A stretch of 64,000 bases of DNA from a virus (IMGVR_UViG_3300019376_000001), one strand, 5' to 3'; positions 25,773 through 26,276 are shown, numbered from the stretch's first letter. Notes: generated from the sequence alone by a model not told the origin. Numbers and translations are program-made.

Positions 25773-26276
25773 TTACTTTCCTCCGTTATAATGAACGATA
25801 TAGACTATATAGTCTTCATCAAAAACTTCTCGAATCATTGCTTCGATTACATTCCAGTTTGCGCCACCGCGGTCACAGCCAATCAGATAAGGGAAACCGA
25901 TTGTAGACCCCTTAGGAAGAACCTGCTTGAGATTATTCAAACAAATCCAAAACGCATCATAGGAAGTGTAACGCTTGCCATCATAACCATAGTTATTCTG
26001 TGCAAACATATTGCAGACATGTTGATGTTTAATGTCTTTCATAAAGTCCTCATACAGAGGAACGAGCTGAACATCACCAAGCATCATATTAACGCCCAAT
26101 GTTACCATTGCATCATATTTTGCTCGATATGCATCATAAACTTGCGGGTAGGTATCGCGAATCTGCTTCGCGATACCAGACGCCATTTTACCCTGACAAT
26201 TCACCTGATGGCAAATCACATCAAGATTCATGTCTTTCTGTACTTTGAGTAAGTCACCAGGCATATGAACTATCAT
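25773..26276 (-). CDS. Macro domain protein (ADP-ribose binding/processing)
   Basis: 167 aa; DVICHQVNCQGKMASGIAKQI resembles macro domain N-terminal glycine-rich motif; embedded among NAD genes. Confidence 0.55.
   Translation of the reverse strand: MIVHMPGDLLKVQKDMNLDVICHQVNCQGKMASGIAKQIRDTYPQVYDAYRAKYDAMVTLGVNMMLGDVQLVPLYEDFMKDIKHQHVCNMFAQNNYGYDGKRYTSYDAFWICLNNLKQVLPKGSTIGFPYLIGCDRGGANWNVIEAMIREVFDEDYIVYIVHYNGGK

Follow-up and report, generated by a model that had tools for sequence, protein, structure and literature searches.

A phage macrodomain in a candidate NARP1-type NAD+ reconstitution module that may run through nicotinate

The 167-amino-acid macrodomain protein (hereafter Macro) encoded at 25773..26276 on the minus strand of a 64,000-nucleotide viral sequence (IMGVR_UViG_3300019376_000001; the whole of this stretch is referred to as the window) is probably a Poa1p/Adpp-type enzyme that acts on small ADP-ribose (ADPR) derivatives within a five-gene, NARP1-type module for NAD+ reconstitution. 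NAD+ depletion is among the commonest bacterial anti-phage strategies, and the phage pathways that reconstitute NAD+ (NARP1, NARP2, NARP3 and NARP1-AP) are being mapped now. The five genes, which encode PncA, an Adps-like protein, a Namat-like protein, Macro and NadE, would act against bacterial immunity that depletes NAD+, with Macro converting otherwise unusable ADPR derivatives to free ADPR, which Adps would then activate. The main candidate substrate is ADPR-1''-phosphate from RES-type NAD+ phosphorylases, and sirtuin-derived O-acetyl-ADPR may be a second. More tentatively, we suggest that the operon, which appears to be an undescribed version of NARP1 through nicotinic acid, employs a nicotinate ADP-ribose transferase to form NaAD, and that this version is widespread in gut phages of Clostridia and of other hosts while being almost absent from cultured-phage databases. 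The substrates of Macro and of the module, and their anti-defence role in this phage, are what we infer from the homology, fold and genomic context described below.

The open reading frames of the Macro region are real genes rather than chance ones, since database searching gave 2158 homologues at E ≤ 1e-5 and 41 columns are invariant across 26 aligned homologues. The first-pass annotation had described a Macro-like protein of 167 amino acids with a glycine motif, and both the reading frame and the motif (VNCQGKMASGIAKQI, residues 25-39, nucleotides 26160..26204) were confirmed. The Pfam Macro model PF01661 aligns with residues 23-89 only, at 13.8 bits (E 0.058) against a cut-off of 22, and misses the protein; it is further profiles and the structure, all in agreement, that support the assignment as a macrodomain. 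The phrog_335 family, annotated as "phosphatase," matches Macro at 4.5e-36, the PADLOC DarG model matches over the whole domain at 5.4e-11, and the NCBIfam DarG model matches the N terminus at 5e-10. When a profile built from the 26 homologues was compared with the PDB, it matched BT1257 (1.7e-10), Mycobacterium tuberculosis DarG (9e-8), yeast Poa1p (2e-5) and human TARG1 (6e-5). An AlphaFold2 model computed from the same alignment (pLDDT 89, pTM 0.86) has the three-layer alpha/beta/alpha macro fold, and each of the top 50 Foldseek matches to this model in the PDB is a macrodomain or a design based on one; its matches include 2AFC, DarG, TARG1 and Poa1p. These profiles and the predicted structure place the protein among macrodomains, in the TARG1/DarG/Poa1p subclass; the lack of profile or structural support that would have refuted the first-pass assignment was not seen. 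Bacillus phages also encode members of the phrog_335 macro family at sites that are not near NAD genes, so that membership in the family does not by itself fix a substrate.

Within this subclass, the closest functional parallel is Adpp, a Poa1p-like macrodomain present in about 15% of NARP1 operons. Adpp converts ADPR-1''-phosphate, which is formed when RES-type enzymes degrade NAD+, to ADPR, which allows Adps and Namat to rebuild NAD+ and NARP1 to overcome aRES defence (bioRxiv 10.64898/2026.01.28.702374). Macro is 30% identical to the tested Adpp of Vibrio phage Gary (E 1e-11; hhalign 97.9% over 145 columns), the sequence of which was taken from the supplement of the same preprint. It is 36% identical to the macrodomain of Vibrio phage RYC (E 2e-35), whose Adps-Macro-Namat operon appears in Table S1 of that work (Osterman et al., bioRxiv 10.64898/2026.01.28.702374), and 33% identical to the macrodomain of Pseudomonas phage PN09 (E 2e-20). 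As in the NARP1-AP operon of phage Gary, the macrodomain is found among Adps-like and Namat-like genes; its homology to Adpp and to the RYC protein is full-length, and the Poa1p-type His is present. The key residues of Macro are His23, Asn26, Gln93 and the loop GCDRGGANW (residues 133-141), which together with NCQGKMASGIA makes up the phosphate-binding loops. His23 aligns with His23 of Poa1p, where DarG has an Asn (Asn19), and the Gln of the N-x3-Q motif also occurs in the RYC, Gary and PN09 macrodomains. Poa1p and Macro have the N-terminal loop in common as well, whereas Ser30 of Poa1p and, by motif reading, Phe152 are not conserved, and the sequence alignment between the two proteins covers residues 3-92 only. 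The best match in both sequence and fold (TMq 0.72) is Bacteroides BT1257 (2AFC/2FG1), which shares the GQ and GCxxxGxW motifs.

The matches to DarG raise an alternative that we regard as improbable, namely that Macro is an orphan DarG2-like antitoxin, similar to AdfM of phage PhiKZ, that strips the ADP-ribose attached by DarT2 from thymidines of phage DNA. AdfM provides a precedent, being a DarG2-like, stand-alone phage macrodomain that removes DarT2 marks from DNA (PMC13309987). In addition to the PADLOC and NCBIfam matches, the closest solved folds include DarG 5M31/5M3I (Foldseek E about 1e-8, TMq 0.72), and by fold DarG2, AdfM and Macro fall in the same subclass. Asn26, which is invariant in the 26 sequences and lies in the distal-ribose pocket, corresponds to DarG Asn22 and AdfM Asn23, residues relevant for activity; however, because this Asn is common to the whole subclass, it does not discriminate in favor of a DarG2 or AdfM function. 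The similarity to AdfM is confined to the N-terminal third of Macro (~50 residues), and the conserved context of the gene is NAD salvage, not DNA metabolism. Moreover, Lys80 of TaqDarG, the counterpart of the main catalytic Lys of TARG1, is catalytic, and K80A is inactive (PMC5179494). In Macro, this position is Gln93, which is invariant in the 26 sequences. The replacement of the catalytic Lys by an invariant Gln argues against the anti-DarT role that had been proposed for Macro. From the sequence comparisons, the better reading is that Macro is a small-molecule ADPR-1''-phosphate phosphatase, similar to Adpp, that would serve an NAD+ reconstitution operon.

The arrangement of the genes is consistent with such an operon. 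All genes of the region are on the minus strand. The ATG of Macro overlaps the stop codon of the Namat-like gene (TAATGA), with the start of NadE two bases past the end of Macro (TAAAATG), so that the earlier placement of Macro next to NAD genes holds. A promoter-like sequence, TTGATT-N17-TATAAT with a TG (28524..28552, minus strand), heads a group of five genes that encode a 62-amino-acid protein (28284..28472, minus strand), a Cys-rich protein of 178 amino acids (27767..28303, minus strand), the Namat-like protein, Macro and NadE, and a terminator-like hairpin followed by a run of T (24942..24978, minus strand) closes it. Sixteen copies of this promoter motif are present in the window, all of them on the minus strand; chance would give 0.01. 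Several lie directly behind terminator hairpins. Taken together, the promoter motif and the terminators delimit one transcription unit that extends from 28552 to 24942. The preceding unit begins at a promoter-like site at 30686..30714 (minus strand), encodes PncA, a 62-amino-acid protein, the Adps-like protein and a 171-amino-acid lipoprotein, and ends at a terminator at 28550..28581. A third unit runs from 36309, where a promoter-like site (36281..36309) heads the genes for Sir2, YqeY and Thg1. PADLOC returned no match for the 178-amino-acid protein or for an MVP-like protein, and an AAA_28 protein had no match in the PDB.

This layout differs in several respects from published NARP1-AP operons. 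There the order is Adps-Macro-Namat, whereas here it is Namat-Macro-NadE, with Adps in the adjacent transcription unit. Published NARP1 operons are also compact, while in the window the Adps-like and Namat-like genes are split by three open reading frames and a terminator. For assignment as Adpp, the authors of the NARP1-AP study required a position no more than two genes from Adps and Namat; Macro directly adjoins the Namat-like gene, and the Adps-like gene is four genes upstream. Finally, the present module contains a nicotinamidase and NadE in addition, and its Namat-like enzyme has a Ser/Ala at the nicotinamide-binding Asp and an insertion in the clamp helix.

The Namat-like enzyme (26276..27748, minus strand) is a type II phosphoribosyltransferase of 490 amino acids that matches Pfam NAPRTase/NAMPT_N. 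Its best solved relative is the SpbetaL1 Namat (9W5X/9W5W; PMC12774641 confirms it as Namat), to which it aligns with 340 bits compared with about 180 bits for human NAMPT; by sequence, Namat is a nearer relative than Nampt. A search for the identical protein returned no record. In canonical Namat enzymes of NARP1 (SpbetaL1/Bas63), Asp215 hydrogen-bonds nicotinamide (PMC12774641) and the adenine-clamp (SCH) motif reads GSxFxFxFTRD. The equivalent residue of human NAMPT, Asp219, defines substrate specificity, and D219S is recorded as a mutant with switched substrate affinity (PMC7096376, PMC4919578). In the window enzyme, this position is Ser211, and the clamp motif is interrupted, reading GAFCFH, a 10-amino-acid insertion and LTRD, with the first aromatic residues kept.

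To place these features in context, we compared related loci, comprising 80 from IMG/VR found through the Macro alignment, 52 from IMG/VR seeded independently with the SpbetaL1 Namat, three metagenome contigs and 19 from a bacterial and archaeal genome collection. The RYC Namat as a scan seed gave one locus, and the SpbetaL1 Namat sequence, rebuilt from a PDB alignment, was used instead. Neighbors were counted within 10 kb, and lineages were defined as clusters at 70% identity. The gene order PncA, Adps, Namat-like, Macro, NadE is conserved across about 130 related loci and, around macrodomains of the window type, has very few exceptions. Macro is flanked by the Namat-like gene and NadE in nearly all cases, and Adps directly precedes the Namat-like gene in most related loci. 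The residue at the nicotinamide-binding position is Ser or Ala in all 95 NadE-linked Namat homologues and Asp or Glu in all 36 others. NadE is present at all 95 Ser/Ala loci, which also contain Macro (89), Adps (89) and PncA (84), whereas neither NadE nor PncA is present at any of the 36 loci with a canonical Namat. The same division is seen after dereplication. The 14 Ser/Ala clusters contain NadE in 14 cases, PncA in 13 and Macro in 12; among the 24 Asp/Glu clusters, the corresponding numbers are 0, 0 and 3. The Ser/Ala enzymes form one deep clade, which indicates a single ancient change that has been maintained and rules out many independent Asp-to-Ser/Ala events.

Because every NadE-linked Namat carries Ser or Ala in place of the Asp that binds nicotinamide, we predict that these loci encode a NARP1 variant that works through nicotinate and deamido-NAD. 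The proposed pathway would begin with phage PncA, which would deamidate the nicotinamide freed by immune NADases to nicotinate. Free ADPR would be regenerated by Macro or, in some lineages, by NADAR, and Adps would convert it to ADPR-PP. The enzyme of the Ser/Ala sister clade of Namat would then join nicotinate and ADPR-PP to give NaAD directly, which NadE would amidate to NAD+.

PncA (30079..30651, minus strand; 190 amino acids; Pfam Isochorismatase) is a PncA-type nicotinamidase that retains the Asp/His/His metal site and the catalytic Cys and is closest to solved nicotinamidases. NadE (24980..25771, minus strand; 263 amino acids; Pfam NAD synthase) is a single-domain NAD+ synthetase, the type that converts NaAD to NAD+, and scores 166.7 bits against TIGR00552 (cut-off 63.65). 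The Adps-like protein (29123..29896, minus strand; 257 amino acids) has the phosphoribosyl-synthetase (PRPS) fold in Pfam, falls below every NCBIfam cut-off for Prs, and is 36% identical to the RYC Adps (E 1e-27). Its median score is 104 bits against Adps proteins encoded beside canonical Namat, and no solved Prs exceeds 54.8 bits. Its PP loop, DDICSRGGTF, matches that of SpbetaL1-type Adps, the common motif being DD[IL][CS]S[RK]GGTF; this comparison used the motif as described in PMC13586617 together with SpbetaL1-like loci. (The Adps of phage ICP1 was not found within the first 50 kb of HQ641347.) By these sequence measures, the 257-amino-acid protein groups with Adps and not with Prs.

A different possibility, which we consider less likely than not yet the strongest of the alternatives, is that the genes are a plain Preiss-Handler set of Clostridia origin, in which nicotinamidase, a PRPP synthetase, a nicotinate phosphoribosyltransferase that forms NaMN, the host NadD and NadE would make NAD+ and Macro would be a loose passenger. 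The NCBIfam model NF006629, named "nicotinate phosphoribosyltransferase," accepts the Namat-like protein (427.6 bits, cut-off 405), the adenine clamp is interrupted by an insertion in most Ser/Ala members, and Namat itself keeps some activity with PRPP (PMC12774641). In 14 related loci, a NadM-like adenylyltransferase is encoded close to the module, and the core module occurs on large Lachnospiraceae/Ruminococcus scaffolds. The grouping of the PRPS-like protein with Adps speaks against this possibility, as does the fact that no adenylyltransferase was found in the window (E ≤ 1e-3) or in most loci. Moreover, an ADPR-releasing enzyme fills the slot between the Namat-like gene and NadE in most lineages; it is Macro or NADAR (the latter at L132 and L156), and in one locus, L138, a NADAR-NadE fusion directly follows the Namat-like gene. 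The human-gut phage Phass-1 has an Ala-form enzyme whose Namat clamp, GAYTYQYVTRD, is intact, together with PncA and NadE. As for the bacterial scaffolds and the idea of a bacterial housekeeping operon, the one bacterial copy that we inspected, in Lachnospiraceae bacterium A4, is flanked by ORFans, TnpB and a metallophosphatase like that of the window, and looks prophage-like by its gene content. A NARP1-type module that works by way of nicotinate would be the most economical reading. Under either the nicotinate or the Preiss-Handler scheme, Macro is best explained as a hydrolase of small-molecule ADPR derivatives that contributes to NAD+ recovery. In Phass-1, the slot is occupied by a 139-amino-acid protein that has no Pfam match and, by reading of its sequence only, contains a HAD-like DFDDTV motif.

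If the nicotinate route operates as proposed, it would add a fourth chemical logic to phage NAD+ reconstitution, in which NAD+ is made via nicotinate and deamido-NAD by a re-specified Namat. The Namat-like protein would have a new enzyme activity, that of a nicotinate ADP-ribose transferase, and NaAD would be reached by a route that bypasses NaMN and NadD. Phages could have adapted in this way to nicotinamide being removed or sequestered by hosts or defences. Macro, for its part, would be a further phage enzyme that salvages a "poisoned" product of NAD+ breakdown. We did not find this arrangement mentioned in the NARP papers or the Aravind-lab survey among the literature that we searched. A megablast search with the 24-38 kb region gave no match among deposited phages, indicating that there is no close cultured relative. 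Homologues of NadE are encoded in 8 of 50,697 deposited phage records, compared with 1,934 that contain Namat/Nampt homologues. The rarity of NadE in deposited phages may explain why the arrangement has been absent from cultured-phage surveys, and the proposed route would account for the presence of NadE on hundreds of gut-phage contigs.

Since yeast Poa1p clears ADP-ribose-1''-phosphate that arises from tRNA and RNA repair, Macro might have the same cellular role, although we think this very unlikely. The Poa1p-like residues of Macro would suit such a role, and the window contains 35 tRNA genes along with genes for a Thg1-like enzyme, an RNA-ligase-like protein, a P-loop kinase and metallophosphatases. 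However, no Tpt1/KptA 2'-phosphotransferase, the source of Appr>p and Appr-1''p, was found among the open reading frames scanned, and Macro is co-transcribed with the Namat-like gene and NadE, not with genes for RNA enzymes.

The sirtuin of the window, which the first-pass annotation had called bona fide and had paired with Macro, proved to be an intact enzyme but a doubtful partner. Sir2 (35474..36244, minus strand; 256 amino acids) is the first gene of the unit with YqeY and Thg1. It has the Rossmann motifs GAGxS and NID, and contains GAGVSTESGIPDFR (residues 30-43), QNIDGLH (residues 114-120) and the four Cys of a zinc ribbon at 140, 143, 162 and 164 (CPRC...CECGG). The protein scores 178 bits against Pfam SIR2 and 276.7 bits against the NCBIfam deacylase equivalog NF001752 (cut-off 221). 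The catalytic His, for which a check had been suggested, is His132 in EIHG (nucleotides 35849..35851). In the alignment with Sir2Tm (E 2e-43), it is paired with His116, and the H116Y mutant chain 2H4H differs at exactly this residue. Sir2 is 60-66% identical to housekeeping deacylases of Lachnospiraceae and other Clostridia (about 65% for the Lachnospiraceae enzymes) and had no match to the PADLOC defence-sirtuin models. By sequence, it is a bona fide NAD+-dependent protein deacylase of the CobB type and not an ADP-ribosylating sirtuin of the SirTM type. It is complete in the motifs of the CobB/Sir2Tm type, including the catalytic His and zinc ribbon, and differs from those enzymes in being phage-encoded and co-transcribed with YqeY and Thg1-like genes.

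One possibility is that Sir2 and Macro nonetheless work as a pair, with O-acetyl-ADPR made by one and hydrolyzed by the other, or with a target ADP-ribosylated and then erased as in SirTM-Macro operons. Both enzymes are present and intact, the structural relative TARG1/OARD1 deacetylates O-acetyl-ADPR, and PncA and Macro together could recycle nicotinamide and O-acetyl-ADPR, the by-products of sirtuins. We nevertheless consider such a pairing unlikely. In SirTM-Macro systems, the sirtuin and macro genes share one operon, whereas here they are 9 kb apart in different units bounded by their own promoters and terminators; moreover, a CobB-type deacylase is not a dedicated ADP-ribosyltransferase. 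In addition, only 9 of the 95 Ser/Ala loci (3 of 14 lineages) have Sir2 at a distance of up to 10 kb from the module, making Sir2 an occasional neighbor and not a partner. Its separate unit and its presence in 3 of 14 lineages leave the "writer/eraser pair" weak. Sir2 is more probably a separate, host-derived deacylase, and recycling of sirtuin-derived O-acetyl-ADPR by the module is compatible with these observations. Both the Sir2-Macro pairing and an anti-DarT role are less likely than a function of Macro as a small-molecule hydrolase. The broader theme of the earlier annotation, that the phage directs ADP-ribose chemistry against host defence, holds, while the pairing of Sir2 with Macro is not supported and the anti-DarT assignment of Macro is disfavored. 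For annotation, a phage set of "NAMPT + PRPP synthetase + macro + sirtuin" should not be taken as a generic ADP-ribose writer/eraser kit. We also considered a role in handling Thoeris signals, for which there was no specific evidence here; the title of a preprint on RyR-domain proteins describes phage proteins of this kind as degrading ADPR-based signals and fueling NAD+ synthesis.

Macro, Sir2 and NADAR each belong to known kinds of protein. The NADAR protein (36856..37266, minus strand; 136 amino acids), noted earlier as part of the same toolkit, is indeed present, with 91.3 bits against Pfam PF08719 (cut-off 35.1), and would be a third, independent ADPR-processing enzyme. Like the AdfN proteins, which are phage NADAR anti-DarT1 factors, it is a stand-alone phage NADAR domain. 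It differs from them in passing the YbiA-type model TIGR02464 (78 bits, cut-off 73.7), a clade described as housekeeping in the AdfN paper (PMC11825919), and related loci have a NADAR linked or fused to NadE. In those loci, NADAR is often found behind NadE or in place of Macro; 38 of the 95 Ser/Ala loci, representing 7 of the 14 lineages, have a NADAR no more than 10 kb from the module.

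The slot that Macro, the 167-aa macrodomain protein, occupies between the Namat-like and NadE genes can be filled by NADAR. A stand-alone NADAR lies at this place in two related loci, L132 (8632..9150) and L156 (7456..7884), and in a third, L138, a single ORF of 401 aa (7437..8639) combines the Pfam domains of NADAR and NadE as a fusion. Since NADAR is found joined to NadE or in the Macro slot, our comparison suggests that the two proteins are interchangeable suppliers of ADPR within the NAD module.

A further version is found in Phage Phass-1 (OQ749652.1), a member of the code-15 clade from the human gut. 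Here (96860..101298) the gene order is nicotinamidase, Prs-like, NAMPT-like, a 139-aa non-macro protein with a putative HAD-like motif (DFDDTV) and then NadE, all five overlapping or abutting. The NAMPT-like protein has Ala at the position of the nicotinamide-binding Asp, and its Namat clamp is intact. As a named, complete genome, Phass-1 is a possible test case for the variant pathway, the predicted NARP1-type rebuilding of NAD+ via nicotinate and deamido-NAD.

Some relatives also have an adenylyltransferase route, given that a NadM/NMNAT-like nucleotidyltransferase is encoded in L004, the closest relative (188 aa, GQPFHNGH motif, 5386..5952), and in 13 other related loci; none was found in the window (E<=1e-3). 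In L004 the gene sits where the window has its Major Vault Protein (MVP)-like gene (30749..33241, minus strand). The latter, a transcription unit of its own between the Sir2 and PncA units, encodes an 830-aa protein with the MVP shoulder (93.8 bits) and vault-repeat domains, and has homologues in related phage loci (L008, L009, L014, L020-22). The window also encodes a flotillin/SPFH protein (20877..22409).

Who are the hosts? The core of PncA, Adps, Namat-like enzyme with Ser at the Asp position and NadE is present, usually without Macro, on Clostridia scaffolds among contigs of a bacterial and archaeal genome collection (L143-L161), including those of Lachnospiraceae bacterium A4 (791 kb), Ruminococcus sp. 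AM36-2AA (499 kb) and Roseburia and Christensenella MAGs. This distribution points to Lachnospiraceae-type hosts and to a module that also exists in prophage or bacterial form.

The module may also include a 175-aa AAA_28 P-loop protein (38501..39028, minus strand), since homologues with 68-78% identity directly follow NadE-NADAR in L010, L020-22 and the MAG contig L143. The NadR ribosylnicotinamide kinase domain belongs to the Pfam family AAA_28; a PDB sequence search with the protein returned no match. The NADAR stop is overlapped by the start of another gene (36320..36856, minus strand), which encodes a membrane protein of 178 aa that partially matches formate/nitrite transporters (45.8 bits).

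Near-identical copies of a promoter-like element, TTGATTTTT..AAAAATATG.TATAAT (-35, 17-nt spacer, extended -10), occur 16 times in the window versus 0.01 expected, all on the minus strand from 2109 to 62123 (e.g., the motif matches at 24125..24153, 28524..28552 and 36281..36309), often directly preceded by a hairpin/T-run terminator. These elements probably mark the phage's host-sigma-dependent transcription units. The phage has a sigma-70 family factor of its own (42049..43074, minus strand), which is full-length and spans regions 1.1-4.

An array of 35 tRNA genes (50384..63747, minus strand) represents all 20 amino acids, with four tRNA-Met-type CAT genes, and shares one genome arm with genes for a Thg1-like tRNA-His guanylyltransferase (34083..35012), a YqeY/GatB-like protein (35023..35514) and an RNA-ligase-like protein (39056..40489).
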